Shown here piece after piece: positions 1-22,986 of a stretch of 56,564 bases of DNA. How positions within the stretch are numbered: position 1 is the stretch's first letter; the number at the start of each line of letters is the position of its first letter. The stretch comes from Pseudomonadota bacterium (GTDB lineage: Bacteria; UBA10199; 2-02-FULL-44-16; JBDRGF01). Location of the stretch: NCBI GenBank assembly GCA_043818055.1, contig JBDRGF010000003.1, positions 1 through 56,564 on the forward strand. The letters are read 5' to 3'. A program made the translations under genes and the position numbers. The notes under the pieces were generated by a model. That model was not told the DNA's origin. It made no database searches and saw only the letters and a list, made by a program, of their open reading frames with translations.

Positions 1-26
1 TAGACTCACAGTCTAACTTTTTAGAC
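1..26. promoter_or_regulatory. Tandem palindromic activator-binding site (GTCT-N8-AGAC at 11-26 plus the half-site TAGAC at 1-5 of a truncated upstream copy)
   Basis: GTCTAACTTTTTAGAC matches the motif and ~21-bp periodicity of the site pairs at 5692-5729 and 37260-37296, which lie upstream of sigma-54 promoters. Confidence 0.55.
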
Positions 27-79
27 ACTCCCGGTCCGTGCAAACTCTAGATGGCAGAATGATCTTAACGGTATCGAGT

Positions 80-1183
80 TCAAACCCACTTTGAAAATCC
101 ATTCATATTACCTGCTAAATAGTTCAATTCGGTCATAAACAACAAATTAGTTATAACTCCCTTTTCTTCATCGGATCGGATATGTTCAATCAGATTCAAC
201 ATTTCATTACATCTTGGATGCACAGCAAAGAAGCTTCCGGTTTTGGCATAGGTGTATGCCCGACACCCTCCCCTACAAATATGAAAATTTTCACAAGTAT
301 CACATTTGGTACTATTATTTAAATAACACGACATTTTATTTTCATGCTGAGTTAATATATATTCAATTGAATCGTTCAACAGATTTCCTAACAATAGTTT
401 ATCTGGAATATTCTCACACATATAGACATTACCAAATGGGTCAATCTGAATTAAATTCCCACAAAGGGCATTGCAATAGTATTTACGTTTTATATCTCGC
501 AATCCAAGATAACCAACCAGAATATCATTTACAAAATCGATATTCACATGAGGGGAATACTTTTTCTGATATTTATACAAAAGTTCATATAGATCACATA
601 AAGGATGCAATTCCAGATCTGAATAATTGTCCTTTGCCTTCCCAACTCCCTTAACCTCGGAGACATGAACTGTATCAATTTCATTATCCGCACAAAACTT
701 CAAAGTTTTATCAAGAGTTTTTATTGTATAGCTGTTTATTGTTATTGCTACTGTAAAATCAAGATCAGCTTCTTTACATTTATCAATCGTTTTAAGAACT
801 CTGGACAAACCATCCACACCCCGTGACATGATGTAAGTATCTTTATCAACACTATCCAATGTAAATTGAACAGAACTTCCAGTCTCTTTTAATACATCAA
901 TAAAATTGTCGATAGTGACAAGGCCGTTGGACGCGAATATTATTTTTACGTCAAGTTTATGAAGCCACTTTAAATATTCGACAAGATGAGGATACAAGAA
1001 AGGTTCTCCGCCAGAGAGTGAAAAGAGCCTGAAGTTTTTATCAATCAACTTTCTTGAGATTTTTTTTAATTCATTCAAGTTCCAACTCTTCTCAAGACCT
1101 TTTCGATTATAGCAATATGGACAATGAGCATTACACAAATTTGTTAATTCCAACATAACCCCTTTAACTGGCATATTCCACAT
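80..1183 (-). CDS. Radical SAM/SPASM domain protein (RiPP maturase 3)
   Basis: CNAHCPYC (CxxxCxxC), SGGEP, SPASM cysteines CNALC...GNVYMC...CDTCENFHICRGGCR...C. Confidence 0.92.
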   Translation of the reverse strand: MWNMPVKGVMLELTNLCNAHCPYCYNRKGLEKSWNLNELKKISRKLIDKNFRLFSLSGGEPFLYPHLVEYLKWLHKLDVKIIFASNGLVTIDNFIDVLKETGSSVQFTLDSVDKDTYIMSRGVDGLSRVLKTIDKCKEADLDFTVAITINSYTIKTLDKTLKFCADNEIDTVHVSEVKGVGKAKDNYSDLELHPLCDLYELLYKYQKKYSPHVNIDFVNDILVGYLGLRDIKRKYYCNALCGNLIQIDPFGNVYMCENIPDKLLLGNLLNDSIEYILTQHENKMSCYLNNSTKCDTCENFHICRGGCRAYTYAKTGSFFAVHPRCNEMLNLIEHIRSDEEKGVITNLLFMTELNYLAGNMNGFSKWV

Positions 1184-2348
1184 ACCTCCGTTTTAATCTT
1201 ACAAGAATAAAACACGACACCATGATGACAAGGCCAGCAAAGAAAAAACCAGTATTTATGCCACATTTGTGGGCCAGGGCTCCTAGTATAAAACCTGATG
1301 ATATTTCACCGCCTGCCCCAACTAATTCGTATGAAGATAAAGCGGTTGCGCGAATCGAAGAAGGAATACGTTGATTTAAATAATTTTGAACAGATGGTCT
1401 CAACACATAATTTAAACCAAAAAAGATAATAATTAGATAGTAGGAAACAGTCATAGAATAGACTGATATTGTTAGAACAATAAAAAATATTATCCCCTGA
1501 GACAAGATCAATACTGTAAGATCATTATACTTCAGTATACGGCTCGAAACTTTGTCTAAAAAAAGCATTATGATTCCCATTATTGAACTAATGGTATACA
1601 GGTAAGCTATCTGAATAGATGAAAACCCTATATTTTGCAGAAATGGCTGATAATAGCGTTCTATGCCATCTATACCAAAAGCCAAAGCTGCACCTGCAAA
1701 GAAAAATAAGCTTAAATTCTTATTACTTTTGATAAGATGATACGACTCTTTGATACTTTCAATGAAATGCATTCTGAAATTTAGTTTCTTTCTCTTTTCA
1801 TCCAGTGCCAGCACCTCAGGCATAAAAATACATGATAATAATGCAATTAAATTAGCTGTTATAGATATATATAAAATTGAATACCGACTAATTTTATAAA
1901 CATGTCCGGCAAATATTGAGGAGATAATGCAAAATAAGTAAAACAGGATATAAGCATTTGTAATATTAGCTTTAAATTTGCCCTCTTGACCTCGGCCTTT
2001 TAGATAGTCCATCAGCCAGGCCTCATATGCACCTGAACGAAATGAATCCCCCAATCCAAAGATAAAAGCAGCCAAATAAGCGTGCCAGGGCACATTCGCA
2101 ACAGTGAAGATTGCCAATGAGAGAGTATATATCAAAGCAGCACCAACTAATGATATTTTTCTACCATACTTGTCGGCAAAACTACCTGTCGGAATTTCAA
2201 AGATCATCCTTGAGATCTCAAGAATAGCACCAATTAGCCCTATATGAAATAAATTAAGCCCTACATCCTTAAAGAAAATAATCCATAACGAAAAAAAGAT
2301 GCCATTTGATATGCCTCGCATCGAAATATAAGAGTAAAAACCTAACAT
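1164..2348 (-). CDS. MFS transporter, probable peptide exporter
   Basis: About 12 hydrophobic segments, MFS motif FEIPTGSFADKYGRK, PSSIRAT motif; start moved to ATG at 2348, which has GGAGA upstream and overlaps the rSAM stop. Confidence 0.9.
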   Translation of the reverse strand: MLGFYSYISMRGISNGIFFSLWIIFFKDVGLNLFHIGLIGAILEISRMIFEIPTGSFADKYGRKISLVGAALIYTLSLAIFTVANVPWHAYLAAFIFGLGDSFRSGAYEAWLMDYLKGRGQEGKFKANITNAYILFYLFCIISSIFAGHVYKISRYSILYISITANLIALLSCIFMPEVLALDEKRKKLNFRMHFIESIKESYHLIKSNKNLSLFFFAGAALAFGIDGIERYYQPFLQNIGFSSIQIAYLYTISSIMGIIMLFLDKVSSRILKYNDLTVLILSQGIIFFIVLTISVYSMTVSYYLIIIFFGLNYVLRPSVQNYLNQRIPSSIRATALSSYELVGAGGEISSGFILGALAHKCGINTGFFFAGLVIMVSCFILVRLKRRYVEYAS

Positions 2349-3442
2349 CTTAAATTCTCCTTGGGAAACAATCCCTTTTCGTAAAAAGACTGACAAATCG
2401 GGTCTGGTGCAGTAAATCTTCTGTAGCGATTATAAGCTTCAACTCTACAACCACCCTGACAATCAGGGAGAAACTTACATATTTTACATACACCTTCAAA
2501 TTCAGTTTCACCAATATTTTTTAATTTAATGTAAGAAGGATGATTTACAATTTTTTTAAGAGAATCGATTCTGATATTACCTAAAATAAATTCCGAATTA
2601 TCTAATAACCCATCGCAAGGAGCTACATTTCCATTCGAATCAATACCCAGCATATGAGGAAAGGAACAAAGATATCCCCCACCATGTCGCGTATTTTGAA
2701 AACGCTGTGGAATAAGACCTTTTGGTATTATCAGACTTAAATCAAAATTATTTTGATACTTCATTAACCATTCATCAATTAGGTGATCAAATATTTCTTT
2801 CTTTAATTCAACCGAGATATCATCATCTTTAGTCGCTTTTCCTGATGGCATTATGGGAATTACACAAAAAGTTGAAGGTTTTAATTTAGAACAGAGCTCA
2901 AACATTCCAAAGATTTTTTTATAATTATGCTTCATCAATGTAGTCGCAATAACAAGGTTTTTTGAATTACAATTATTTTTTGCAAATTCAAAGAAATCCA
3001 ATGCTTTGTTAAAAGAGCCGGAACGTCCTCTAATTTCATCGTGACTTTCATCCGGGGCATCAATACTTACCTGCAATAAATGAAATTGGATCTCTTTCAG
3101 TCTATTTAAATCTTTTTTTCCAAATACATATCCATTAGTACTCATTGAAATTAGATAACCGGATCTATTAATAAGTTTTAAGAGTTCAAATATATCATTA
3201 TTCAATAGAGGCTCTCCTCCATTTACAAAAAGTTGACAACAACCCAATTCTTTCAATTCACCTACAATTCGCTTGATTTCGGCACTGGTCAACTCGTTAA
3301 GATATCTTTTTTTGTAATCAGTGTTAACATAGCAGTGCTTACATTTCAAATTACAATGTCTTGTAACTTTAATAGAAGCTGAATAAATCAGAGGAGAACC
3401 AAAAAACTCATTAAACTGGCTTAAAGTCGAGATCTTTTCCAT
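2342..3442 (-). CDS. Radical SAM/SPASM domain protein (RiPP maturase 2)
   Basis: CNLKCKHC, GGEPLL, YLCSFP...GNVAPC, CKICKFLPDCQGGCR...C. Confidence 0.93.
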   Translation of the reverse strand: MEKISTLSQFNEFFGSPLIYSASIKVTRHCNLKCKHCYVNTDYKKRYLNELTSAEIKRIVGELKELGCCQLFVNGGEPLLNNDIFELLKLINRSGYLISMSTNGYVFGKKDLNRLKEIQFHLLQVSIDAPDESHDEIRGRSGSFNKALDFFEFAKNNCNSKNLVIATTLMKHNYKKIFGMFELCSKLKPSTFCVIPIMPSGKATKDDDISVELKKEIFDHLIDEWLMKYQNNFDLSLIIPKGLIPQRFQNTRHGGGYLCSFPHMLGIDSNGNVAPCDGLLDNSEFILGNIRIDSLKKIVNHPSYIKLKNIGETEFEGVCKICKFLPDCQGGCRVEAYNRYRRFTAPDPICQSFYEKGLFPKENLRC

Positions 3443-4544
3443 TTTTTAAACACTCCTTTGGAAACAATCCATCATCATACATTTTCTGACAAGTTGGAAA
3501 TGGCCCATATATATCATTGTAATAAGCAATCGAAGAAGCTCTACAATTTCCAGCACACTCAGTAAGAAAAACACACTGAGAGCATACACCCTTAATTTTC
3601 AATATATCCTGTTGTAAAATTGAATCCGATTCATAAATTCTTTTCCAACTCTCAGCCATGCCCATTTTTTTGTAATTCCCCGCAACAAACTTTTTATTAC
3701 CTAAAAATCCATCACACGGAGCTATATCTCCATCAACCCCAATTCCCATAATATGTGGATAAGAACAGCATTCAATAAACTTGAGATGCAATCCTTTATC
3801 ACGTAAATCCTTAGGAATAAATACAGGTGGAATAACACTGTTTTCAGCAAATTTCACTTTGAAGTCAGATTTTCGATATTCTTCAAACATGCTATTTAGA
3901 TTCTCAACCAGTTCTTTTGGCGTCACATCCATTTCTTTAGTTGCCCTTCCCAACGTTAGCAACAGCATCAATGCAATGCTGTCCACTTTTAAATCTATGG
4001 CTACACGCATAATCTCATCAAGATAATTAATATTTGACTTAGTAATGCACACGCCGAGAGTAATATTCTTTATTTTGTTCATTTGAGCGCATTTAATAAA
4101 ATCATTCGCTTTTTTATAGAAATTGGTACCGCGATTTTCATCATGGATACGTTCTGGCCCATCTATACTAATCTGAAATTGAAAAAAAGGAATATGAGAT
4201 ATAGCTTTTAGCTTTGATTCGTCTAAATATGTTCCATTCGTGCTGATCAATATATCAAAACTTTTTTCATGGGCATACTCTAGAATTTCTACAATATCTT
4301 TTCTCAGAAATGGTTCACCACCTGTAAAAAAAATCTTATAAGCACCTAATTTAGTAAGTTCATCCAGAATATTCTTAACCTCCTGAGTAGTATGCTCACC
4401 TAAAGTTTTCTTACCCGCATTAGTATAGCAATGTTTGCAATGAGCATTACAAGCCATCGTTAAACGCATCGAGGCTGCTTGTAACGGATAATCTCCAAAA
4501 AAATCAGATACATTTTTGTTGTTTGATATAATTTTACAACTCAT
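3411..4544 (-). CDS. Radical SAM/SPASM domain protein (RiPP maturase 1)
   Basis: CNAHCKHC, TGGEPFLR, CCSYP...GDIAPC, CSQCVFLTECAGNCR...C; likely start MSCK at 4544, overlapping the PqqD stop. Confidence 0.93.
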   Translation of the reverse strand: MSCKIISNNKNVSDFFGDYPLQAASMRLTMACNAHCKHCYTNAGKKTLGEHTTQEVKNILDELTKLGAYKIFFTGGEPFLRKDIVEILEYAHEKSFDILISTNGTYLDESKLKAISHIPFFQFQISIDGPERIHDENRGTNFYKKANDFIKCAQMNKIKNITLGVCITKSNINYLDEIMRVAIDLKVDSIALMLLLTLGRATKEMDVTPKELVENLNSMFEEYRKSDFKVKFAENSVIPPVFIPKDLRDKGLHLKFIECCSYPHIMGIGVDGDIAPCDGFLGNKKFVAGNYKKMGMAESWKRIYESDSILQQDILKIKGVCSQCVFLTECAGNCRASSIAYYNDIYGPFPTCQKMYDDGLFPKECLKNGKDLDFKPV

Positions 4545-4815
4545 CGGCTTCCTCCAATTCAATTAATTCACCATTTTTCAAATTTTCAATACATTCATAT
4601 GTATCGGATAATATCTCTTTTTTTTGTTCTTCAGTTTCAGGATGATATTTCTCACACATTTTTAAAAATATTTTCTGAACGTCATTATTCCCATCACATA
4701 ATGAATAGATCTCAAATGCTGTCGTGTTAATTCCAATGCTATTCGAAAATAGATAAGCTTTCTTTAGTTTTTTATATTCATTGTTCTTCTTAATTGGTAT
4801 CAATTTAATATTCAT
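4534..4815 (-). CDS. PqqD-family stand-alone RiPP recognition element (RRE)
   Basis: 93 aa with INTTAFEIYSLCDG...I...M..KY...D...IENL..GELI pattern typical of PqqD; AAGGAG RBS; directly upstream of the rSAM genes. Confidence 0.88.
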   Translation of the reverse strand: MNIKLIPIKKNNEYKKLKKAYLFSNSIGINTTAFEIYSLCDGNNDVQKIFLKMCEKYHPETEEQKKEILSDTYECIENLKNGELIELEEADEL

Positions 4816-4833
4816 TTTCTTCTCCTTTAATCA

Positions 4834-4870
4834 CTTCAGGAGGAGGCAAGATATCACCTCCCCCATGAAG
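4834..4870 (-). terminator. Stem-loop between precursor and maturase genes (mRNA stabiliser or leaky terminator)
   Basis: Minus strand CTTCATGGGGGAGG-TGATATCTTG-CCTCCTCCTGAAG forms a long stem; no clear U-tract. Confidence 0.65.
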
Positions 4871-4883
4871 TTTTTTAATCCTA

Positions 4884-4958
4884 TTACACCTTATGACCAC
4901 CTTCAATATTCCGACATCTCGCAATTTTTACCACAACTGGTTTTACATATGCTGTCAT
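4884..4958 (-). CDS. Putative RiPP precursor peptide, 24 aa: MTAYVKPVVVKIARCRNIEGGHKV
   Basis: Translated by hand; strong SD (GAAAGGAGGTGA) just upstream of ATG; tandem stops TAA TAG; YxKPxV leader motif of RRE-bound precursors; first gene of the RRE/rSAM cluster. Confidence 0.85.
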   Translation of the reverse strand: MTAYVKPVVVKIARCRNIEGGHKV

Positions 4959-5041
4959 TGGATTTCACCTCCTTTCAGTCTTCTTATACTATTAACGTTT
5001 AGTCCTTTATTAGATTTACCAATCACACCTAATTCAATCTA

Positions 5042-5539
5042 TCACTTCTTTTCAGAGCTTTTACCTTCTTTCTTCGATTGAACTTCTTCAACTATATCTT
5101 TCCCACTGACAGCTTTTAAGCCGGTCATAATTGTTGGGGAATATTTTTTCTTTGTTGTGAACAATATCGAGTCGCTCTTTTCGTTTTCTGTCTGATATAT
5201 CACTCCGAAGTTGTCGCGTTTTTTCTTGCTGAATAGCATAAAGAGAAAGAGTGGATTGACAAACGCCAGACCAACGCTCTCTCCTACACGGCGTCTTGCG
5301 TATTCTCCCTTGGATATTTCTGATATTTTCGTTCCGTCAATTTTGCGATCCAGATGTTTGTACTTCGAAGAAGAATAATCTACGTGGAGATAGCCATCTT
5401 TTGTATAAACCATGCACTTACTAAATTTACCCTCCCCGTTTAGACATTCTGCATTAGCAGCAAACGCAGCCGGAGACATCACCATCGATAAAATACAAAC
5501 CATTAAAATTGCACGCTTCATTGTTTTTTTCTTTTTCAT
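5042..5539 (-). CDS. Secreted hypothetical protein
   Basis: Start moved to ATG at 5539 (AAGGAGGAAGGG-ATG); signal peptide ending SPAAFA; one internal hydrophobic stretch. Confidence 0.75.
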   Translation of the reverse strand: MKKKKTMKRAILMVCILSMVMSPAAFAANAECLNGEGKFSKCMVYTKDGYLHVDYSSSKYKHLDRKIDGTKISEISKGEYARRRVGESVGLAFVNPLFLFMLFSKKKRDNFGVIYQTENEKSDSILFTTKKKYSPTIMTGLKAVSGKDIVEEVQSKKEGKSSEKK

Positions 5540-5600
5540 CCCTTCCTCCTTTGTTTTAGGTATCCATGAAACATACAAATCAATTCAATGAGGCCTCTCT

Positions 5601-5618
5601 ATGCATTTACCGTGCCAA
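5601..5618 (-). promoter_or_regulatory. Sigma-54 (-24/-12) promoter
   Basis: Minus strand TTGGCACGGTAAATGCAT with correct GG-N10-GC spacing. Confidence 0.8.
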
Positions 5619-5633
5619 AAATTATAGAATGGA

Positions 5634-5646
5634 TAACAGCTTGATA
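5634..5646 (-). promoter_or_regulatory. IHF binding site
   Basis: Minus strand TATCAAGCTGTTA is an exact match to WATCAANNNNTTR and lies between the enhancer sites and the sigma-54 promoter. Confidence 0.7.
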
Positions 5647-5691
5647 TATATGGATATATTGGTCTGGGATGTTTTTGATATGATCGAAAGT

Positions 5692-5729
5692 GTCTGGAAT
5701 GTTGGACTTAATAGTCTAGGAAATTGGAC
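5692..5729. promoter_or_regulatory. Tandem enhancer (bEBP upstream activating) sites
   Basis: GTCTGGAATGTTGGAC (5692-5707) and GTCTAGGAAATTGGAC (5714-5729), about 75 bp upstream of the -24 element. Confidence 0.65.
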
Positions 5730-5785
5730 GGTAAATAAGAAAAAAGCGCATGTAGCATGTGGCATGTAGTATGTAGTGAAAAGCT

Positions 5786-5970
5786 AAAAACCTTCTCCCC
5801 CATCCGCCCTGCGGGCACCTTCCCCCGTCGAGGGGGAAGGGCATAGAGGAAAATGTCATTGGGGGCACCTTTCCCCGTCTCAGCCAGAAGCTGATCTGCC
5901 TTTGGCGGAAAGGTGGAAGGGCAAGAAGTAAAATGTCATTGGGGGCACCTTCCCCGATCGAGGTGGAAGT
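5786..5970. repeat. Cluster of REP-like palindromes (GGGCACCTTCCCCCGTCGAGGGGGAAGGG type), three units
   Basis: Internal repetition of AAATGTCATTGGGGGCACCTT; 5798-5899 is nearly identical to 37491-37593. Confidence 0.8.
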
Positions 5971-5994
5971 AAATAAGGGAGTGAATTGGTAGGA

Positions 5995-8739
5995 TTAAAA
6001 AATAGTAATAAAATCGTTTACAGTTACTGGGAGTTGAAAATAACCATCAGCTCCCAGCTTCAAGGCCTCCGGTTCTGCGTCGCATCTCTGTGTCCCGGAA
6101 ACTATGTAGATTTTCGAAGGCTGGTTTAATTCCCTGGATACCTTTATTATATCCATACCGTTTTTATCCTCACCCAAATCCAGATCGCTGAAAATATAAT
6201 CGAAGCTATGATTTTTCATCAAAATAACTGCATCACTGTAAGTACCTGCAACGCTAAATTCCAGATGTTTATCTGAAGAATTCTTCATACCAAAGGCTTT
6301 GCTCAACATACTTTTCATCATGATGTGCAGAGATGGGTCGTCGTTGACTAATAAAACCTTCGTTGGATTCTGATTACTAGTCACTGGTGAATTTAGCGTT
6401 ACTGAATCATTTTCTAAATGCTTGTTTTGCACTTCATCTATACTGCTAACATTCAGAAATTCAACCAGATGCGCAATATTAAGAGATTTAGGAACAAAGC
6501 TGACTACACCCAATTTCATTGCTTTGTTTTTATCCTCTTCAATGCACCTATTAGAGTGAACCATACACCTTAAGTTTGGATATTGTCTTTGCACTATCTC
6601 TAGAAAATCAAAGCCATTCTTAACCTCTCCCAGGTCGATATCGACTATAGCATGCAAGATATTTTCCTTCACTAAAAGTGAAAGAGCCTCTTCAACGTTA
6701 TGCGCTTCATACAATGTTATCGCTCGATCCAATGATCCGTTTTGCTTGATTGTATTCCTCACCGACGCTCTGTATAATGCCTCGTCATCCAATAAAAGAA
6801 CCTTGATCATCTCCCCTTTTTTCAACAACTCTGTTATCATATTTTCTATCTCTGTTTCATTCTTCGTTAAATCCTTAAATTGTGTCTCTTTAATATTGCG
6901 AGGCAATAATTTACAGTCAGATTTATCTAAAATATTTGAAGCTGGGATTATGATTATGAATTCCACCCCCCTACCATTATCCTTATTGCGTGCTGTGATA
7001 GTACCAATATGCAAAGCAATTATCTTATGTGCTGAAGCAAGCCCTATTCCCGTCCCCTTTCTTTTTCCTTTAGTGAAAAAGGAATCAAACAATTTAGGAA
7101 TGTCATCTTTATTCAAACGAGGGCCATCATTGCCGATCACCATTGCAACCATGTTGTTTCCAGCGCGATTCATATCCTGAGTTGATATATCAATCGTACC
7201 GTGCTTACTTTTTCCTATGTGAAGTATAGCCTCTATAGCGTTAGACAAAATATTGATAAAAACCCTGGCGATCCTTTCATCATCAACTAGCGGCCGATTA
7301 ACATGAGAGATTTCATAGACAAAGTCGATATCAGCATCCTTATAGTACTGAGCTACTTGACGAATAGCAAAATCAATGACTGGCATAATAGGAGTAGGCT
7401 TAACATCAAGTTTTACTTCCCTCGAAAAATCCATTATATCGTTGAGCATCGATTCAACATGTCTGATAGATTGATCTAATGATTGTTTTGCTTCTTTCAA
7501 CGCTCCCGGATCGTTGATATAAGTATCGTATGATTCCATCATTGCCTTGATGATAGAAAATGGCTTGCGTACATCGTGTGCAAGCATGGATGTGGTTTGG
7601 CCTATAGCTGCTAGTTTGTTCTTTTCCGCTAATACATCCAATAAAATATTCGCCTTATACACAAGCTCATTATAATGATATAAAATATCATCAATTTCAG
7701 AAATACGACTCATAGACTCAACTTTACGTATTTTTAAATGACCACTATTAATAACATCTTCTACGTCAAACTGCTCATCCGGCCTAAACAACATAGCTGT
7801 GATCATTAATATTTGATTAGATATTTTTAATGAAATAAAATTAGAAATAAACCAAATTAGAAATACTATCAGCATAAGATTTGTGAGTTGAAACGCATCA
7901 CCAACATTTAGCAATCCTATTGCATATAATAACCCCAAAAAAAATAATATTCCTGTTGAAATCGCAATAGTTAAAAACGTTCTAACGCTAACATAACTTT
8001 TAACATAATCAACTTTATTAAAAATAAATTCTCCATTCAATAACGTTATAAAAAAAGTTGCTATTGTAATATCCCAAACATGGGAATACCATGTCAGTGG
8101 AGTATCACTTTCGATACCGGAATGATATCTAAGAGCAAAATCAGCTATACATAATAACAATAATGATTGCAGGAAAATATGTTCATTCTGATTGTTACCA
8201 CGAAATATTGAAGGAATGATTAAACCGAGAATCACCGCTTGAATCAGAGTATATATCGTACTATTGATTAAATGAAATAATGGCGGTGTTGGTTCAACAT
8301 GGTAATACGGAATTAAAATATAAGTAAATGAGAGGTAAGCAAATGTTACCGCCACTATCAAAGCTAAGCTTATTGATATGTAATCTTTAAGAATTGGTCG
8401 AAGCTTAAACACCAGATAAATTAACAGCGTTGTAACAAAGATCGTGTATCCCGTCTCTCCCAAGTAAACAATGGGGATCCATTCCCTATATTGTTCATTG
8501 ATGGTAAATGTGTATATTACATCTGCGAATAAAAGCGCTGCAAAAGCTGCAAAAAGTAGCCACATGCTTTTAGAACATGTTTTTTTAATAGACCTGTATA
8601 TTATTACAACACAGATACCAATTTCAGATAGATAGACGTGTAAATCAGAGAAATAAGATGTAATACCATAATATTTGGCAAGAATAAGATGAATCGTTGC
8701 TGGGAGAAATATATATAATATTGATAAAAACAATTTCAT
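5995..8739 (-). CDS. Hybrid sensor histidine kinase: multi-TM sensor, HisKA, HATPase, two receiver domains
   Basis: Many N-terminal TM helices; AHDVRKP H-box; NILSNAIEA, NDGP, FFTKGKRKGTGIGL; REC motifs VLLLDDE...IVDIDL and VLLVNDD...FSDLDL. Confidence 0.92.
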   Translation of the reverse strand: MKLFLSILYIFLPATIHLILAKYYGITSYFSDLHVYLSEIGICVVIIYRSIKKTCSKSMWLLFAAFAALLFADVIYTFTINEQYREWIPIVYLGETGYTIFVTTLLIYLVFKLRPILKDYISISLALIVAVTFAYLSFTYILIPYYHVEPTPPLFHLINSTIYTLIQAVILGLIIPSIFRGNNQNEHIFLQSLLLLCIADFALRYHSGIESDTPLTWYSHVWDITIATFFITLLNGEFIFNKVDYVKSYVSVRTFLTIAISTGILFFLGLLYAIGLLNVGDAFQLTNLMLIVFLIWFISNFISLKISNQILMITAMLFRPDEQFDVEDVINSGHLKIRKVESMSRISEIDDILYHYNELVYKANILLDVLAEKNKLAAIGQTTSMLAHDVRKPFSIIKAMMESYDTYINDPGALKEAKQSLDQSIRHVESMLNDIMDFSREVKLDVKPTPIMPVIDFAIRQVAQYYKDADIDFVYEISHVNRPLVDDERIARVFINILSNAIEAILHIGKSKHGTIDISTQDMNRAGNNMVAMVIGNDGPRLNKDDIPKLFDSFFTKGKRKGTGIGLASAHKIIALHIGTITARNKDNGRGVEFIIIIPASNILDKSDCKLLPRNIKETQFKDLTKNETEIENMITELLKKGEMIKVLLLDDEALYRASVRNTIKQNGSLDRAITLYEAHNVEEALSLLVKENILHAIVDIDLGEVKNGFDFLEIVQRQYPNLRCMVHSNRCIEEDKNKAMKLGVVSFVPKSLNIAHLVEFLNVSSIDEVQNKHLENDSVTLNSPVTSNQNPTKVLLVNDDPSLHIMMKSMLSKAFGMKNSSDKHLEFSVAGTYSDAVILMKNHSFDYIFSDLDLGEDKNGMDIIKVSRELNQPSKIYIVSGTQRCDAEPEALKLGADGYFQLPVTVNDFITIF

Positions 8740-8829
8740 TGTTATTAATTCGTTATTTGTTTATAATTTTTAATAACATATGCCAATTTGCCCTTTTAAT
8801 CAACATATTCCGTCTTTCAAGGAGATACA

Positions 8830-9405
8830 ATGATTAATAATAAGTATAAGCTCAACCCTGATCTGCGTTCTACGGATGACCCTGCATTGGGTGAATATGT
8901 CCCCATAAACACCCAGATTTTTTATCAACTAAAAATTGCCAAATCTAAGCTCTCAGATGATATTGGACTTGGAACATTTGCACTGGAAAATATCAGGAAG
9001 GACTCCGTTATTATTATAGGAGGCGGCCAGCTGACAAGCGACTCTAGTAAATTTTCAAAAGACAAAGATTACGCTGGAGTCTTTAATGAAAAATATTTAA
9101 TGGCCCCACTTGACTATGACAATCCATCTCCAAATTGGTTAATGAATCACTCATGCGAGCCTAACGTAAAAATAATTGGTGGATTAATAGTAATTTCGAG
9201 AATTGATATAATTAAAGGAGATGAATTGACTGTGGATTACGGTATTATTGCCGCGGGAGATTTTGATTTTAAAATGAATTGCAAGTGTAATTCAACAGAT
9301 TGTCGTCAACAAATCACTAATAACGACTGGAAAAATAAAAAGCTCTTCGATAAATACTATGATGAATGGGCACCTTTTATTCAAAAAAGGGGTGTCAATA
9401 ATTGA
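8830..9405 (+). CDS. SET domain protein with post-SET cysteines (putative protein-lysine methyltransferase)
   Basis: GLGTFA, NHSCEPN, ELTVDY, CKCNSTDCR; AAGGAG RBS. Confidence 0.92.
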   Translation: MINNKYKLNPDLRSTDDPALGEYVPINTQIFYQLKIAKSKLSDDIGLGTFALENIRKDSVIIIGGGQLTSDSSKFSKDKDYAGVFNEKYLMAPLDYDNPSPNWLMNHSCEPNVKIIGGLIVISRIDIIKGDELTVDYGIIAAGDFDFKMNCKCNSTDCRQQITNNDWKNKKLFDKYYDEWAPFIQKRGVNN

Positions 9406-9413
9406 TATCTCAT

Positions 9414-10709
9414 TTATTTCAATAGAATATCTACCCTTCTGTTTATTCCTTGACCTTCCAACGACATTTCTGAAGAAACCGGTTTTGTAGAACCATATGA
9501 TTCTACAACAATCTTTTCTCCATCAAAACCTTGTTTAATCAGATAGTTTTTTACCTCTTCGGCCCTTTGCAGAGAAAGATCGCTGTTATACACATTCTCC
9601 CCCCAAAGATCCGTATGTCCCTGCAGAATTATTTTTTGTGGATTCATTTGCATTAGTTCTTTTATGACTGGAGTTAAAAGATATTTCTGCTTCACCGAAA
9701 GCTCTGCAGAGTCGAATTTAAAATTAACGGTATGTAGAACTTGAGCATTTCCAGCATCTGCGTCTTTTTCTATTTTTTTGACATGTTTATCTTTCAATGG
9801 TGAAAAATTATAAGTCAGACCTGCAAATATACGATACGCAGGTGAGCCAACAGCGCTGGTCAATCCGAAACCTCCTCCTAATTCCACTATAAAATTTTTA
9901 CTGAGTTCTTTTTGAACACCGATATCCATTTCAATCGGTGTCATCATTTTAAAGCTTTCTCCCAGAACGCTCTCGCCAACCACTTGTGCGTTTATTGCCC
10001 ATGTATCTTTTTGCCACGGCAAACGATACCGGGCTGCAAGACCAAATGTCAGTCGATCGTCATCCACTATATTCCAAACTCTCCCGGTTGCAGGGTTGGT
10101 AAGCTGATGTCGATCTATAATCTTATAACCAAGATTCGCTGCGATATAAAAACGATTCAAATTTTTATCTACAATGGCACGAAATTCTGAAGTTACGCTT
10201 CCCTCCCCCGTGAATTTGCCTCTATCACCTGTCGATGCTGTCAGCCGAACTTGAAAGGCAACTCCTGGTATTTTATCTGATTCAGGTAGTCCCCTCACCT
10301 TTCCTTCAAAGGCGATATCACCAAGGCTTGTGGTGTGAAAGGAATTTTGCCTATCATCAGTCCCATTTTCGTAAAGGTTCAAAGGAATTTGCAGTCCCAC
10401 GTCAATAAATTCAAGTATTCCCAATGAAAATGATAAATCAGTCGTCCAAAGAGTTCCTACAAGATCAACGACACTGTTATTAACCGGATTACCCGCAGAA
10501 ATAAATCCACTACCAATATGAGTGTCTAAGCGAAATCTTGGTGTAAGGTGTCCTAGAGTTTGGGATCCATAGACCGAAAGCGAACCGCTACCGTCGGTTG
10601 TCAGGCGAAAATGCTGTACGTTGAAACCAGACAGATTTGTATCTGCAACGAGCAGACGAATAGGAAAGCTAAGAAAAATTATTAAAATGATAAGACGATA
10701 AAATCTCAT
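9414..10709 (-). CDS. Outer-membrane beta-barrel + OmpA_C protein (TraB-like architecture)
   Basis: Signal peptide; amphipathic beta-strands ending YRIFAGLTYNF; C-terminal VNFKFDSAEL...GHTD...N..LS.QRA..V...NRRVDI. Confidence 0.88.
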   Translation of the reverse strand: MRFYRLIILIIFLSFPIRLLVADTNLSGFNVQHFRLTTDGSGSLSVYGSQTLGHLTPRFRLDTHIGSGFISAGNPVNNSVVDLVGTLWTTDLSFSLGILEFIDVGLQIPLNLYENGTDDRQNSFHTTSLGDIAFEGKVRGLPESDKIPGVAFQVRLTASTGDRGKFTGEGSVTSEFRAIVDKNLNRFYIAANLGYKIIDRHQLTNPATGRVWNIVDDDRLTFGLAARYRLPWQKDTWAINAQVVGESVLGESFKMMTPIEMDIGVQKELSKNFIVELGGGFGLTSAVGSPAYRIFAGLTYNFSPLKDKHVKKIEKDADAGNAQVLHTVNFKFDSAELSVKQKYLLTPVIKELMQMNPQKIILQGHTDLWGENVYNSDLSLQRAEEVKNYLIKQGFDGEKIVVESYGSTKPVSSEMSLEGQGINRRVDILLK

Positions 10710-13700
10710 AATTTCAACTTCCTCTCCACTTCCCCCTTTCTAAATTGCCTCCTGATATAAATTCCTGAAAGCAAGAACAGGACAATACAGCCCATCGATC
10801 TTCCACCCTTTTCCTTTGTCAGAGAACATCCACCTTTTCCACCTACGACCTGCGTTGGATTGGAATCATCCGCTGGATTGTTGGGATCCGTTTCGCCTAA
10901 ATCAGGCTCATAAAGGCCATTCATATTCTTGTCTTCCGAACTATCTAACAACCCACCTGCATCCGTATCGGCCTTAGTAGGATCCGTAGTCGTTGTTGGA
11001 TCGCTATCCGCTATGAAATTTCCTATTTTAAGGTTAGTCGCTTTCAATGGGCCAATATCGTCAGGGTCGTTCGCCGGAGAAATAATCCCCATCTCAATGC
11101 CATCGCTTATACCATCATCATCGCTATCGCAATCTAAAGCATTGATAAATCCGTCACCATCGGAATCGATTAACGCCCCTTTTTCTGTTCCATCTATTAC
11201 TCCATCGTCATCGCTATCACGATCCAACGGATCAAGGCCGGCTGCCACTTCGATATCATCCGATAAGCCATCATCATCCGTATCGACAGCAGTTGTTGAC
11301 GACATCGAGAGTTTAACCGCATCGGAAGTACCAAGGGCAAGACTTTCCAATGTTTCGTCCAGCATAAATCTCAATTCTTCAACTTGAGGCAGGTCGCCCA
11401 GTGCAGACAGGTTCCAGATACAATCGAGTATCAGATCGATTCGCTCCTCAAAATTATCTTCACTCTTGTTATCCAAAGCGTCGAAGGCATCTATAAATTT
11501 GGAAATCAATGCCCAACCGCCATCAGTTATAGCATCGTTAGAAGACAGCTTTCTCATTAATACTAAAGCCTCTCTCCATGAGTCCTGCCAGGAATCGGCC
11601 ATTTTCAAGTCCTTATTCAATTTAAGCGAATAGACTAGGCCGTTATTCCATGTGGCTAAGGTATCAGCTGTAAAATGTATCTCACTGGATGAATTTGGCA
11701 GTCGAACAATGTAATTCAGATGACGTGTTTCATTCGGTTCCATATCGATAACCCATTTTGCGACCCCATCTGTCTCAAGCGCTTTGACCAATGTCGCACC
11801 GCCCTGCAAGAGGGCATCAACACCGATATTTATCGGTTCGGACCTGCTGTTTAGCACTACGTCCAGGGCCACGACTTCAAGCGGCGAGTATTTTTCCTCC
11901 ACACCTTTAATAGTAGATAACAGATCAACAAATTCATCTTTTGCTGTGTCTTTTTCTTCATCCTCCATGCCATCGATCCATCTTACAGGTTCATCAAGAA
12001 ATTGGATAAACTTGCCCTGTCCCAGAGTCTTATACTCACCATTATAGCGGCTTGCAGCCAATGCCTCAGAAGTTCTGAACTGCTTCAACATATTCTGCCA
12101 AGGCACTCCGGTAATGGAGTCAGGTTGGCTTAAATTGGCTAAGGTCAAACCGTTATGAACACGTTCTGTCAGTTCGCGATAGAGTTTATTATTGGATTCA
12201 GTTCCTTTAATTTCAAAATCGTCCTGATCTGTCACAATTAAAACGAGATCGAATTCATCACTTCTAAGCCCTTCTAAAAATTCTGACGCAGTTGTTGCAA
12301 TTTCATAATGCCATGCTTTAGTTTCAAATAATTCCATCAGAAACAGAGTTGTGGACGTTTGTGCGGGAATGAGCATCTTGATCGCATTTTCATCCTGAGT
12401 TGAATCAAGGTAATATATGAGGACACGTGGTGTTGTAGAAAATACAAGGCTGGCATCTATAGAATGGACATCTACGTTCTGCCTATGTTCATTTTCGCGA
12501 TTTCCAAGCAAATCTTTGCTCTGATACGATATCACATGAGAACCATCTGAAGTTCCGGCAAGATCGAAAGCCCCAGAATATGGCGTCCACTCACCTCCAT
12601 CGACACTGTATTCAGTCCTGTCAACGCCCACCAAATTATCCTTGGATGAAAGAGTGAACAGCGTGCTTGGAGAAATAATATTGATCTCTCCTGGAATCTG
12701 CTGATTCTGATCAATTGACGTTATCGGAGCCGTATTATCAACGACAACCTTAACTTCGATCTCATCGTCATTTTCATAATCGTCCGCTGCTAAAGCAGTG
12801 ATCGTATTGCTCCCCTCAGTCATAACGTTAAATGCAGGTGATGTGTATTGCGCAGGTGAATTTGGCGTATATTGAACCGGTGTTTCAGAACCGATTTTAT
12901 ATTCCACACGTGTGATATCCGGCCGGTTACTTTTAGCTACCAGTTCAATTGGTGTGCGTGATGTAATATAGAGATCTTTATTCTGCACTTTCGGTTCACC
13001 TATTGAAATATCGATCGTAGGTGGATGCCCATGTAGAATAAAACTGACGTTTTTTCCCGCTTCCCGGTTCGCGACATTGTCAACGCTCCAGTAGCTCATG
13101 CTATGAGACCCGTCTCCCATATCCCTGAATTCTATCGGCGATGTCCAGCTGACTGGTGTATTCGCATCTATTTGATACCAAACTTTATCCACTCCGGAAT
13201 GTTCATCCGATGCGTTGAGGACGAGCTTCGTCGCTTTTCCGGAAATATGTGTTTTTCCATCGATGACGTTTGCAATCCCATCCCAGGTCAGAGTTGTCGC
13301 TGGAGAAGTTCCATCGACTTTGAATGTCGCTTGTTTCGAGCCTTCCGGATTTCCGGCGTTATCCACGCTCCAGTATCTTAAGCTATGTTCGCCACTTGCT
13401 GTAAAATTCAAAGCTGATGTATATTGCGACGCAACTGGATCGGCATCCAAATTATAAAAGGTCGAAGCTACTCCCGATCCATAATCGATGGCATCAAATG
13501 TAATATCAGCGTTTGCAGCTATCCAATCTCCGAAATTACCTCCCTTTATCATTAATCGAGTAATTGGAGGAGTCGCGTCAAACGACAGCAGCTTCTCTAT
13601 AACCAACGAGTTATTGCCTGCCGGATCCTGTGCTACAAGCTGAATTTTGTAGCCTCCGTCAGGAAGCGCGTTGTGAGCGAGGTTTTTGCCGTTCCATTGC

Positions 13701-16700
13701 AAGGTCTTTTCATTCGGGGGAAGTGAAATTGTATTTTCAATCTCAGCCAATGTATTCTGGCTTGCTCCGACCACTTTTGCTGTAACCTTTATCCCCGATT
13801 GAGCCAGATTATCGCTCAAGGTATAATTCACAACGAGACCATTTGCGCTGGATAAAAATGAATCCTCATTTGAAAACGCAAGCATCGGGGGCGATGTATC
13901 GACAGTTACCTCACCGTTGATTGGATCAGATTTATTTCCCGCCTGATCCTCGATGTAGAACTCATAATTGTACATGCCGTCAGAAATTATACTCCCGCCA
14001 ATCCTTCCATCCCAATGAATAGATGTTTCGCCAGTTGTGATCGGCTGATGTTCCGCAGCCAGGTCACCATTCACCTTAAGAGTATAGAAGAGTCCTGTTG
14101 AAAACTGATCAGACAAGGCAACAGAAATGATCATTTCGTCCTTGATCTGATCACCATTTGGTGAAAATGTCTGATCGACAGAAACGAGATTTACAAGTGG
14201 CTTCTCCTCATCAAGCTTAAATTCCACCACTTGAGTTGTTTCGGCGTTGCCAACTTTGTCGATAGACCTAAATTCCAAATTCAGTAGTGTCGTTTTATCG
14301 ATCGAAAATGAGGTTGTATAATTCTTCCATCCTCCATCTCCTAATCTATATTCGATTCTCTCAACTCCACTTGAATAATCACCCTCATCAACAGCTTTTA
14401 GCGATATCAACGTGCCGTCATTAACAATGAAACTCTTGTCGCCAGCCTGATATGGTCCTTCCAGTGATATTTGTGACCTTGGAGGTTTGCTATCGATTAT
14501 GAACTTGAATTGTTTTACATCCTCATCCCGTTCATAGATATCTCTGCCATAATACTCTAGCATATGAATGCCAGACTCGTTACCTTCAAGAGCTAACGGC
14601 GTTCCATAACGATGAAATTCCGGTTCAGACATGCGATAGAAAATCTCAGTTACTTCCCTTTCCTTGTTCGAAGCCGCCAATATGATCGTAGCATCGGCAC
14701 CGACCCAGATTTCACCATTCATCAAATATGAACGACCATTGATTATAGCTTTTGTTCCAATTTCGGTGCTTCCTGAAGGGATTACATCGCTTCGCAAGAT
14801 CAGTGTCACCTTTCGTTCGCTTTCACGATTTCCTACATCATCATATGCCGCATATGTGATCTCGTGATTGCCTATCTCCTGGCCGGCCAATGTAAATGGC
14901 GAAACGTATTCAACAAATGAAGCGTCATCGATTTTATATTCAATTCTCGTTGTGCCGCTTGTCGTAGATGTTGCTAAGTCATCAGCTAAAAATGATATTT
15001 CACTATTTTCATTCGCATAGGCAGATTGTCCGTCGGATACAACGTTTCCATCCAACAACAGTTTTGTAAGCGGAGGATCCGTATCGAGGCTAATCGGTAC
15101 TTCCAGCGAATTCATGAAGCCGGCTACGTTTAGAACTTCAAAGACTACAGTATATTCGCCACTGGGAAGAGCCGTTTCCCAGTTGATATCGAACACTTGA
15201 TCTGTTCCCTCGTAGATCGTGGTTTTATCCATAACAGGATCGTCATTGCTGTAGTAGCTGATTCTCGTCAACTCCGGCGCAGGGCCTGATATAGATCCTG
15301 CAATATTCAAGGGTGCATTATAGACGGCATTCGGTTTTGGACTCACGATAGAGAAACTTGGTATATCCTTAGCTTCCTTCAACATGACATAGGTGGAAAA
15401 ATGCTCCAATGTAGCCGTTATGGTGAAAAACTTATTCGGATCTGGTGTATCACAGGTGTCGGCCGGTGGATTGACAGTTGAGATCAGTTCCAGTTCACCA
15501 TTATCCTTCAAATTATAGACTGTGATTTCAGCAGGATTGCTCCCGAAAGCATTCCAGACCTCTTCACATGTGAATGTGGTCTCCATTTGAACAGGGTGTT
15601 GAGGATCGATATCTATACCGTCCGGCTGGAGATTATAGACCGGTCCGACAGGAATAGTGCCTGAAGGAAGGTTCAGCGCCGGCAATAGTGGATCATTACT
15701 TTGAACGGGTGTCACCGACACAAGAGCCATTTGTGAATTATTCCCTAATGTCTGATCATCGAAATACAGTTTTGTTCTTCCGAACGCATCCCGAACTTGT
15801 ACATTTTCGCCTCGTTTTACCTCTTTACCCAGACCGATATTCATACTCGTCTCTTTTATCTCTCCCACATCGTTTTCAACACGAAGGAGTACAGTGTAAT
15901 TTTCGCCGTTGAGCTGTGTCACATCCCACCACCCTAAGATTCGCGTTCCATCGCTTTGAGGTTGAGAGAGTTGATTCGGAATATTTTGCCAAAGCTGTTT
16001 CCTGGAATCGTAATATTTGAGATCGTACTTGCTCGTTTCAACGTCACCACGGATTTCTATGAATCGCTTAGGCACTGCATTCGGTTTCAATTTTAGACGG
16101 AATGTATCAAGAGTATTATCGTTGAGCTCAGGAATCGCATTTTTGTCCTGATCTATTGTGGAATTGCCATGAATCTGTTTATCGACGACTTCAAAGGCAT
16201 TTACCGGTTCGCCGTTCGGATATTTCAATTCGATATTCCAATCATTGATGCGAACTATGTTGGAGAATGTATAGAGATCAGGATGAGCAGTCTTGGCTTC
16301 GTATGCATCATAGATTTTTATAGCATCTGATTTTATCCTGTAGTCCTGTTCGTTGAAATGCTCGAAAAGCGAGGATATCTTTCCGCCATCAAGAGAGGTA
16401 TCCTGATCGGTTGAAAATGTATTTTGAACAAATGAGGCGTAAATGTTTGGATTATTTGAAACGCAATTGCCTGTATCCGGACCTGATGAACTGCCCATCC
16501 ATAAATTCACGAAGGGAAGTTTTTTGAAACCGCTTTCGCAACTCGCAAATTCCAATTTACGATAAGCATTATTGAGTCGTTCGCGCACCTCGTATGTAAA
16601 GCTCTGTGATGTTATCGATACCGTGTCCCCCGCGCCCGTCCCTATCGAACCCGAGGGGAACGCCCCGAGCGCGCTAGTTCCTGAACTTTGCAAGTTGCGC

Positions 16701-21391: not shown

Positions 21392-21643
21392 TTAAAAAAC
21401 TCCTTTCATAAATTTTTTCTCCTTTTTAAGCTTTCTTCTCTTGATGAGATAGATTATTGGAAATGAAAAGCAAAAAATAGTTATCACAAACAAAGGTAGA
21501 ATTGCCTGATCACCGCAAACAATTCCTGCATTTGCCCAACTCACACAATCCCTAGTTAAATATTCATGAAGTTCAGTTAGCCAGATTAAAGGAAATGCAA
21601 TAGCAGATATTTTCCAGCTTAAGGATACCTTATGTTCACTCAT
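21392..21643 (-). CDS. Putative immunity protein 4 (2-TM hairpin, C-x9-CGD loop)
   Basis: Start moved to ATG at 21643 (GGAGG upstream); CVSWANAGIVCGDQA resembles CARPYLYEAVCGDGA of 24435-24668. Confidence 0.72.
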   Translation of the reverse strand: MSEHKVSLSWKISAIAFPLIWLTELHEYLTRDCVSWANAGIVCGDQAILPLFVITIFCFSFPIIYLIKRRKLKKEKKFMKGVF

Positions 21644-22073
21644 ATGGCCTCCGTAGATAATTTCCGATTCTTTGTGCAGCAGCATCTGTTATTACTTCAT
21701 ATATTGTGGACGCCGGAGTAAGCGGAAAAGTGGTGTTCGTCAACCCCTGTGCCATACCACTCACAGCAGCCCCTCCAATTTCATTGTAGAATGTTGGATT
21801 GCTCAAGTAGGTGTTCAGTGCTGAATTATATATTTCAGATCCTACATTATACATCTGCTGTCCTCTGTACCAAAGCTGCTGGCCTGCGATTGTGGAAGCA
21901 GTTCCAACAACAGGGGCAATTTGTTGTGTGTAACCGGCTAAACCAGTGAGTCGTGTCCCAATATAGTTTACACCACCTGTGCCGTACGTAGCTGCAACTG
22001 CAAACATCCCTTCGTCGAGTCTGACGAAAACTAATGTTTGATAATGCTCTATGTTAGATGTTTTATTTAGCAT
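21636..22073 (-). CDS. Orphan toxin C-terminal module 3 (no RHS core remnant)
   Basis: AGQQLWYRGQQMY matches AGQQVWYRNQQVY of orphan 1; YLSNPTFYNEIGGAAVSGMAQGLT resembles the C-terminus of the main RHS. Confidence 0.65.
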   Translation of the reverse strand: MLNKTSNIEHYQTLVFVRLDEGMFAVAATYGTGGVNYIGTRLTGLAGYTQQIAPVVGTASTIAGQQLWYRGQQMYNVGSEIYNSALNTYLSNPTFYNEIGGAAVSGMAQGLTNTTFPLTPASTIYEVITDAAAQRIGNYLRRPYE

Positions 22074-22306
22074 TTCTTACTTTGCCCTTTATTCGTCTTT
22101 TGATTCTCCGATCCAGTAATTAAGAAATAAACACCTAATATTCCTAATAAACCAAAAAGTGTTAAAATTAATTTAGCACCAGGACCTGATAAAGGTGCGC
22201 TTACATACATAATTACAGATCCAGTAATAAAATAATGCGCTAATTGCCCTAAAAACATCACTATACATAATAATCCTAAATATAAATTTGATTTTTTAAA
22301 TTTCAC
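22067..22306 (-). CDS. Putative immunity protein 3 (2-TM hairpin)
   Basis: 79 aa, two TM helices; GAKLILTLFGLLGILGVYFLITG resembles GAKLVIGIYAFAAIFGLYLIITG of 24435-24668. Confidence 0.75.
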   Translation of the reverse strand: MKFKKSNLYLGLLCIVMFLGQLAHYFITGSVIMYVSAPLSGPGAKLILTLFGLLGILGVYFLITGSENQKTNKGQSKKC

Positions 22307-22981: not shown

Positions 22982-22986
22982 AATCT

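Follow-up and report, generated by a model that had tools for sequence, protein, structure and literature searches.

Organization of the Gene Cluster

The window analyzed here is a 56,564-nucleotide stretch of a Pseudomonadota bacterium (positions 1 to 56,564 of contig JBDRGF010000003.1, assembly GCA_043818055.1) that begins with a compact cluster for a putative ribosomally made peptide with post-translational modifications (RiPP). The cluster encodes a small precursor peptide, a stand-alone RiPP recognition element (RRE), three radical S-adenosylmethionine (SAM) enzymes of the SPASM type (rSAM1, rSAM2, and rSAM3), and a transporter of the major facilitator superfamily (MFS). The coordinates are collected in Table 1. 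An earlier note, made from the letters of the window alone, had proposed the order precursor, hairpin, RRE, rSAM1, rSAM2, MFS, rSAM3, with overlapping genes from the RRE onward. All seven elements were found in that order on the minus strand, including the 24-residue precursor with its strong Shine–Dalgarno sequence, and the successive overlaps are 11, 32, 7, and 20 nt. A Shine–Dalgarno-like sequence precedes every ATG start of the cluster genes.

Table 1. Features of the cluster at the start of the window
Feature	Position	Strand	Basis
Precursor gene, 24 aa, ATG start	4884-4958	-	open reading frame call, family alignment
Precursor Shine–Dalgarno sequence, strong, AAAGGAGGTGA	4965..4975	-	sequence upstream of ATG
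Stem-loop, precursor/RRE interval	4833..4871 (about)	-	folding with shuffles
Stand-alone PqqD-family RRE, 93 aa	4534-4815	-	PF05402, family alignment
rSAM1, radical SAM/SPASM, 377 aa	3411-4544	-	PF04055, PF13186
rSAM2, radical SAM/SPASM, 366 aa	2342-3442	-	PF04055, PF13186
MFS transporter, 394 aa	1164-2348	-	Pfam MFS_1
rSAM3, divergent radical SAM/SPASM, 367 aa	80-1183	-	PF04055, SPASM cysteines
Inverted-repeat part at contig end, after rSAM3	1..26	not assigned	sequence comparison

The stem-loop has a folding energy of -24.8 kcal/mol (z -3.87), none of 200 shuffles was equally stable, and no U-tract is present. It was not called in the terminator scan, and it probably stabilizes or attenuates the transcript. 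Comparable hairpins also follow the precursor in the two nearest relatives, loci L081 (-24.5) and L082 (-17.8); in most other members the corresponding 80-nt interval gave -5 to -17, computed with no shuffles. A promoter and terminator scan of the locus stayed at chance level, and an Rfam search of positions 1-10,000 of the window returned no match.

A Conserved Precursor Ending in Gly-His-Lys

rSAM1 belongs with a set of relatives of its own, at least 119 of which are listed at 34-54% identity. A profile built from 35 of them retrieved 156 loci, 80 from genomes and 76 from metagenomes. Sixty-five of these (L001-L004 and L081-L141, the last being the window's own sequence) were assigned to the family by identity and E-value, and the other 91 served as controls. 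The family precursors follow the consensus [YF]xxP-x4-[IVL]-x-R, five or six variable residues, Gly-His-Lys (GHK), one small residue, and the stop codon. In the window the YxxP motif of the leader lies at 4938-4949, Arg14 at 4917-4919, and the tail GGHKV at 4887-4901. Only P7, R14, G21, H22, and K23 are invariant in the alignment (n = 26). The stretch between the leader Arg and the motif varies freely, and the core of about 12 residues suggested earlier contracts to the last four or five, (G/A)-G-H-K-x. The core contains no conserved Cys, Trp, or Tyr.

The strict pattern of leader plus GHKx-stop was found in 38 of the 65 family loci and in none of the 91 other radical SAM loci (968 kb). It occurs at one place in the window's own 2.93-Mb genome, the precursor reading frame of the cluster. 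Among 31 distinct DNA sequences the invariant G, H, K, P, and R are written with 4, 2, 2, 4, and 5 kinds of codon, respectively. A precursor profile search returned 46 proteins, all of which contain GHK and 45 of which end one residue later; the last residue is Val in 39, Gly in 4, Ile in 2, and Ala in 1. No NCBIfam family matched the precursors apart from a chance pilin match in 2 of 26. An alternative 39-residue reading frame (4805-4924) with a TTG start and no Shine–Dalgarno sequence was rejected as the precursor. One listed protein, P0282, is the L113 precursor read through its stop as Trp and extended to 73 residues, which probably reflects gene calling with a different genetic code.

In a blind test, complete genomes were found with the rSAM1 profile alone, first in a sample of 401 genomes from a single phylum and then among the 13 of a single order. 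A 24-residue peptide ending in GGHKV stands ahead of MFS-RRE-rSAM1-rSAM2 in all four genomes so obtained (G246, G305, G408, and G846), which are close kin. The peptides with the longer spacer (window, L081, L082, and G246) also belong to a single rSAM1 clade (100/100) in a tree of 26 rSAM1 rows and 3 rSAM2 outgroups, from which four rows without a local precursor were omitted. Spacer type thus tracks the enzyme clade, and peptide and enzyme travel together. The syntenic clusters with alignable precursors that the earlier note had called for do exist: the small open reading frame is coding and conserved, and it accompanies the RRE, rSAM1, and rSAM2. The GHK-tailed peptide is very probably the substrate of the cluster enzymes.

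Gene Content and Distribution of the Family

The unit RRE-rSAM1-rSAM2 is constant across the gene maps. The minimal set in the four complete genomes is peptide-MFS-RRE-rSAM1-rSAM2, and neither a third SPASM enzyme nor a peptidase was found in their operons. Three SPASM enzymes, put forward earlier as the hallmark of the cluster, are therefore not obligatory; the RRE and two paralogues are. The RRE of the window (PF05402, 24.7 bits vs a cut-off of 23.4) is 45% identical to that of the complete genomes. The MFS protein, 37-38% identical to those in the minimal clusters of G246, G305, and G408, is a candidate exporter or immunity pump. In G305 (L179, 8540-10757) a transposase-like reading frame is inserted in rSAM2.

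Other members encode three or four SPASM enzymes together with a B12-type radical SAM enzyme (B12-rSAM). The variable accessory genes comprise rSAM3, B12-rSAM, further SPASM clades, GNAT, and MATE or MFS, and also a set of BpsA, S-adenosylmethionine (AdoMet) decarboxylase, FkbH, and acyl carrier protein. A creatininase or a polysaccharide-deacetylase-fold gene adjoins the precursor in some members, never both together in the 67 loci tabulated; creatininase homologues flank the precursor in L103, L115, L116, and L133. The claim that no other tailoring gene is present thus stands for the window operon, a scope set by the assembly fork at which the window starts, but does not extend to the family, many members of which carry tailoring or hydrolase genes. 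The accessory pattern is that of a decorated secondary metabolite on a fixed Gly-His-Lys core. rSAM3 and B12-rSAM occur mostly with the GG-H-K form (the AG locus L126 is an exception), and the GG form is found without rSAM3 in L081 and in the complete genomes; because the AG loci form one clade, no claim is made for a link.

Downstream of rSAM3 in L082 and L083 lie genes for a branched-chain polyamine synthase, GNAT, FkbH, an acyl carrier, and AdoMet decarboxylase, an extension that suggests aminopropyl and glyceryl decoration. A variant arrangement was observed in L119 and L121, with a DegT aminotransferase, an rSAM1 homologue, and an RRE. Both contigs start inside DegT, and no GHK peptide lies within the available contig sequence; L119 continues with further radical SAM genes, a PIG-L deacetylase, and a methyltransferase.

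The family is scattered over bacteria and archaea. The hosts include, by label, Patescibacteria (Saccharibacteria, Parcubacteria, and Gottesmanbacteria), Clostridia, Atribacteria, and Pirellulales, with a Methanosarcina metagenome-assembled genome and Aenigmatarchaeota among the archaea; labels of metagenome-assembled genomes may reflect misbinning. Cultured Caldicellulosiruptor/Anaerocellum species carry an orthologue 47-48% identical to the rSAM1 of the window, and the rSAM1 of the three complete genomes compared is 94-100% identical to named proteins of these genera. The distribution is patchy, with 0 of 40 relatives of the window organism and 4 of 13 genomes of one order; the 401-genome sample, from the phylum of G044, yielded G044 only. 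Thirty-six pattern matches on viral contigs included no relative. The plasmid search gave 512 records, all below 60% identity with the best listed at 26-28%, and thus generic radical SAM proteins only.

The Radical SAM Enzymes

All three enzymes passed PF04055, and rSAM1 and rSAM2 also passed the SPASM model PF13186. The SPASM score of rSAM3 is 18.7 against a cut-off of 21.5, yet all seven SPASM cysteines are kept, and the earlier count of three radical SAM/SPASM enzymes was borne out. rSAM1 and rSAM2 are paralogues (34% identical). rSAM1 contains the CxxxCxxC motif, seven SPASM cysteines, and an invariant PCDG; rSAM2 has the same cysteine set and CDG. In an enzyme tree of 91 sequences, retained from 125 after removal of near-duplicates, the rSAM1 group has a support of 0.997, the rSAM2 group is less well resolved, and a third group that includes rSAM3 has a support of 0.873. 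In leave-one-out scoring rSAM1 gave 476 bits to clade S1 vs 342 to S2, and rSAM2 gave 429 bits to S2 vs 345 to S1. Held-out members of the rSAM3 group scored 267-427 bits vs at most 196 for others, and the rSAM3 of the window scored 295, compared with no more than 195 for non-members. By these profile scores rSAM3 is an accessory orthologous group that recurs in GHK clusters; a direct search with rSAM3 found only itself and one 28% match, and the group emerges from the tree and the leave-one-out scores.

The ten expected cysteines are fully conserved in clades S1 (n = 28), S2 (n = 26), and S3 (n = 12). No further cysteine is invariant in these clades; the nearest reach 79% in S1 and 54% in S2, and the latter is absent from the rSAM2 of the window. 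Seven SPASM cysteines and no more leave a possible open site on the auxiliary cluster AuxI, as in CteB (PMC6231123). The lack of a further invariant Cys argues against epimerases, which need one (PMC8326336). C-S links and epimerization, both listed as options earlier, are accordingly disfavored, since the precursor Cys is not conserved either.

The two positions after the AuxI cysteine have been used for pocket profiling (PMC10288494). They are Asp-Gly in 28 of 28 rSAM1 and 24 of 26 matched rSAM2 sequences and His-Gln in CteB; rSAM3 has no fixed residue there and lacks the Asp after the AuxI Cys. The Asp of PCDG aligns with Asp277 of anSME, which we take to be a catalytic base; no supporting paper was found. 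Most predicted residues of the pocket (Y, [FY]T, ST, QxSxD, and DG) are common to rSAM1 and rSAM2.

The AlphaFold model of rSAM1 (pLDDT 90) has a SPASM maturase fold and matches SkfB, CteB, SuiB, anSME, and PqqE at 15-22% identity. Searches of ESM Atlas and with Foldseek yielded nothing beyond generic radical SAM/SPASM matches. Within the NCBIfam listing (the best 25 of 65-92 families per window enzyme), no family came to even half of its cut-off with the window enzymes, and none attained it with 20 homologous radical SAM enzymes scanned. The placement of the cluster outside the recognized classes therefore holds for the characterized families listed.

Comparison with Known Systems

The general hallmark of radical SAM RiPPs, an open reading frame with leader and conserved core that co-occurs with an RRE and a radical SAM/SPASM enzyme, is present, and the sequence evidence supports a RiPP-like cluster. 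Bicyclostreptin (HghA/B/C/D) is formed from a C-terminal His-Gly-His with two radical SAM enzymes and a discrete RRE (PMC11002830, PMC13361665), the latter features being common to the GHK cluster, and one of its enzymes forms an N-C bond at a Gly C-alpha (PMC11002830). Bicyclostreptin requires Ser(i)/His(i+3) and His-Gly-His, however, whereas the GHK family has G-H-K-x and no conserved Ser. The hosts also differ, and no Rgg/SHP gene was seen in the window region. The comparison, also of the enzymes HghB and HghC, is one of descriptions. By analogy, bicyclostreptin is a working model to which the GHK cluster does not belong, because the Ser...HGH core is absent.

The GHK cluster resembles mycofactocin (MftA/B/C/E) in its stand-alone RRE, in SPASM enzymes without an N-terminal RRE, in conservation confined to the C-terminus, and in the creatininase homologue of some members. 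MftC is also the best NCBIfam match of rSAM1, although the three window enzymes score 132, 105, and 74 bits against TIGR03962 vs a cut-off of 265. The Val-Tyr end of mycofactocin is absent from the G-H-K-[VIAG] tail, and the GHK clusters differ further in two to four SPASM enzymes and a transporter. HtkB links His to Lys (PMC11499958), and beside the His-containing triceptides (HaaB, ScaB, and HtkB; PMC11002830) the H-K-x of the tail is formally aromatic-X-X. The triceptide pattern with a C-beta at position 3 is nevertheless not found: this position is Gly in 4 of 46 precursors, and Lys lies at +1 rather than +2. DynA (85-112 bits vs 450) is the only cyclophane-synthase family among the best 25 in NCBIfam, and ChlB is a distant match.

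Tryglysin (WGK) and streptide (KxxxW) share with the family a Lys in a very short conserved motif, and the WgkB model is among the top matches of rSAM1 and rSAM2 (114-124 bits vs 650). The GHK family has no Trp; Trp, Tyr, or Phe occurs in the last 12 residues of 1 of 46 precursors, a read-through form. With the features of PqqA as background, the pyrroloquinoline quinone system (PqqA/D/E) is similar in its precursor of about 24 residues, downstream hairpin, and free PqqD, but the GHK cluster has neither Glu-xxx-Tyr nor PqqB/C, and the PqqE model gives 73-96 bits vs 381. The Cys donor of sactipeptides and ranthipeptides (including SCIFF) is missing: Cys occurs in the last 14 residues of 7 of 46 precursors, Cys15 of the window precursor is not conserved, and the PapB, StsB, and SkfB models lie far below cut-off. 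The strictly conserved extra Cys of the peptide epimerases EpeE and PoyD is likewise absent. Heme d1/Ahb and anSME, the non-RiPP families named earlier as a possible refutation, do not account for the enzymes, with at most 142 bits vs 500-650 and at most 76 vs 349, respectively, and a pathway context that does not match.

Proposed Mechanism and Alternative Explanations

YxxP is a leader motif of the lasso/PqqA type. From what is known of RRE and SPASM families, the RRE would bind the basic [YF]xxP leader and present the tail. rSAM1 and then rSAM2 would each abstract a hydrogen atom from (G/A)-G-H-K-x, most likely at the C-alpha of the invariant Gly. Each paralogue would carry out a two-electron oxidation, with the electron passing to an auxiliary cluster and the proton to the invariant Asp of PCDG, and the resulting electrophile would be trapped by a nitrogen or carbon of His or Lys, the only conserved nucleophiles of the tail. 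The two paralogues would yield a rigid small peptide with two cross-links (-4 Da), to which rSAM3 would add a third oxidation in the window cluster (-6 Da). The leader would be removed by a host protease in the window cluster and by the creatininase or deacetylase-fold hydrolase in other members, and the MFS protein may export the product, which would serve as signal, inhibitor, or metal ligand. Free Gly-His-Lys is a copper ligand, which motivates the metal-binding idea and does not support it. By analogy, an undescribed radical SAM RiPP family whose paralogues each oxidize the tail into compact His/Lys cross-links is given an even chance of being correct.

A number of observations speak against this proposal. 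Twenty-three of the 65 family loci have no GHK open reading frame. Most such contigs begin inside the operon, and the peptide of L001 is present on other contigs of the same genome, but L118 and L132 have more than 1.4 kb of upstream sequence and stay unexplained. Three further loci show the tail, truncated by the contig start, and the match in L130 is spurious, inside a radical SAM fragment. The family loci themselves supplied the strict pattern and the profile, so that non-circular support comes only from the controls and the four-genome test. The cross-link chemistry is an analogy; the best models are those of the decarboxylating families MftC and Ahb and of the NirJ families, far below cut-off, and the reaction type of a radical SAM enzyme cannot be read from overall similarity (PMC10288494, PMC6231123). 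A direct link between the side chains of the adjacent His and Lys would be strained. The fixed stop position fits C-terminal trimming equally well, and no peptidase was found in the window operon or the minimal clusters.

Such trimming could follow mycofactocin, with the last residue oxidatively decarboxylated or cleaved by the paralogues, His/Lys cyclized, and a cofactor, metallophore, or signal of two or three residues freed by an amidohydrolase. The free choice of the last side chain (V/I/A/G) before a fixed stop, the presence of MftC, AhbC, and AhbD among the top models, and the hydrolase genes beside the precursor in other loci are in keeping with this explanation; the creatininase homologues match MftE weakly (84.7 bits vs 172), and MftE, itself a creatininase homologue, cuts off the leader (PMC10885120). 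The MftC reaction requires a C-terminal Tyr (PMC10288494), however, which is absent. An MFS pump and neither hydrolase is found in the window and in each of the four complete genomes, and the patchy distribution, together with the varying tailoring genes, is more in keeping with a secondary metabolite than with a cofactor. Trimming is on balance doubtful, though it is the strongest of the alternatives. A linear peptide with a desaturated or epimerized tail (dehydro-His/Lys or D-residues) is an improbable outcome. The anSME-type Cys-Asp would suit a dehydrogenase, didehydrohistidine is found in the GRC family of streptococci (PMC13361665), and the aliphatic last residue resembles the Val and Ile targeted by epimerases (PMC8326336), but neither reaction is possible at the invariant Gly, and the strictly conserved extra Cys of known peptide epimerases (PMC8326336) is found in none of S1, S2, and S3.

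A single catalytic paralogue, with the other an obligate partner or redundant and one modification of the core, would explain why the two always lie side by side and have most predicted pocket residues in common, and thuricin CD requires two radical SAM enzymes acting together (PMC12093266). Each paralogue retains a complete set of SAM and auxiliary-cluster ligands, and the two constitute separate, old clades, each with invariant residues not shared by the other, which makes this arrangement very unlikely. It is hardly credible that these are non-RiPP enzymes (heme d1/Ahb, sulfatase-maturase, or sugar-modifying) beside a chance reading frame. Ahb and NirJ models do score highest, and the rSAM1 homologues of L119 and L121 stand by DegT (in L119 also PIG-L) with no GHK frame in the available sequence, but the window enzymes score under a third of the Ahb/NirJ cut-offs, an RRE is present, the small frame is conserved as protein and was predicted correctly in four of four genomes, and the 47 neighbors scanned with Pfam included no tetrapyrrole or sulfatase gene. 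The proposal of His/Lys cross-links can also be put in a stronger form, which we consider unlikely: a new class of RiPP whose two to four SPASM enzymes turn the Gly-His-Lys tail into a tiny polycyclic molecule through His/Lys C-N chemistry new to radical SAM enzymes, with a B12-methylase and an amidohydrolase added in some hosts, the product being a metal ligand or cofactor-like and the system traded horizontally among Patescibacteria, Bacillota, Planctomycetota, and archaea.

Genomic Setting

The AT-rich character of the DNA was confirmed. The G+C content of the cluster is 0.333 vs 0.433 for the genome, as low as in 9 of 2245 windows of the same size, and at third codon positions it is 0.24-0.31 vs 0.52-0.54 in two core genes. 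The low-G+C region extends beyond the cluster to about 9 kb, and a bacterial SET-domain protein (Pfam) is encoded within it at 8830-9405 (+). The island was probably acquired horizontally, as judged from its composition and because the family is found in 0 of 40 related genomes (best score 116 bits).

Contig C3 and the window start together, 79 bp past the rSAM3 stop and at an assembly fork. Nucleotides 1-141 are common to the starts of contigs C35 and C73, which are 94% alike over 319 nt, inverted repeat included, and then diverge into low-G+C cassettes: MATE, methyltransferase, B12-rSAM, solute-binding protein, and kinase in C35, and MFS, methyltransferase, solute-binding protein, and kinase in C73. 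The fork possibly reflects strain variants at an insertion hot spot. Neither contig, although either may be a continuation, was counted as part of the cluster, given the spacer of about 330 bp with the inverted repeat and the identity of just 25-30% between the C35 B12-rSAM and family B12-rSAMs. Contigs from one RNA-library run are 99-100% identical to parts of the three radical SAM genes and the MFS gene. They cover neighboring genes as well and not the precursor; they are no proof of transcription, and the fork stays.

A GC-rich, REP-like palindromic repeat at about 5730-5970 has dozens of copies across the genome. A 4124-residue reading frame (24670-37044, -), in which an apolipoprotein N-acyltransferase-like N-terminal region is presumably joined to RHS/YD repeats, is followed by orphan RHS C-terminal modules (21636-24433, -); we take this to be a polymorphic toxin locus. 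A 3129-residue secreted repeat protein (10706-20095, -) adjoins an OmpA-like gene, and its GC-linker/transmembrane/basic tail resembles, we presume, a MYXO-CTERM sorting signal. Elsewhere in the genome (G000, C33 47000-55000) a second low-G+C cluster (0.37) contains, by labels read from sequence, three radical SAM genes and a B12-rSAM-like gene; it is flanked by two aminoacyl-tRNA-synthetase-like genes, and no precursor was seen.

Novelty and Significance

No published radical SAM system acting on a Gly-His-Lys peptide was found; subscription journals, for example the 2022 JACS atlas, lay outside the search and may list one. The available parts of PMC4289311, PMC9062424, PMC10114670, and bioRxiv 2024.10.07.616454 do not describe the family, and the available supplements of PMC10288494, PMC7470986, PMC12710340, and PMC9062424 contain no family precursor for the motifs searched. 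This includes the 3,422-row precursor sheet of PMC10288494, for the motifs and accessions searched; the sheet may favor Cys-rich peptides. An rSAM1 orthologue, A0A3T0D736, appears in that supplement as one unannotated "Discrete" RRE row among 14,550 and is thus catalogued, not described.

The cluster is real and represents an apparently undescribed radical SAM RiPP family, one of many uncharacterized families and an unusually well defined and testable one. A substrate, the smallest gene set, and a host genus in culture are now defined for a system without the Cys, Trp, or Tyr from which chemistry could be predicted. Complete genomes contain a five-gene version whose enzymes are nearly the same as those from cultured thermophiles, which makes a test cheap. 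The hosts include small-genome Patescibacteria and archaea, groups with few known natural products, and since two to four SPASM enzymes would act on just four or five residues, it is likely that they form bonds by new reactions.

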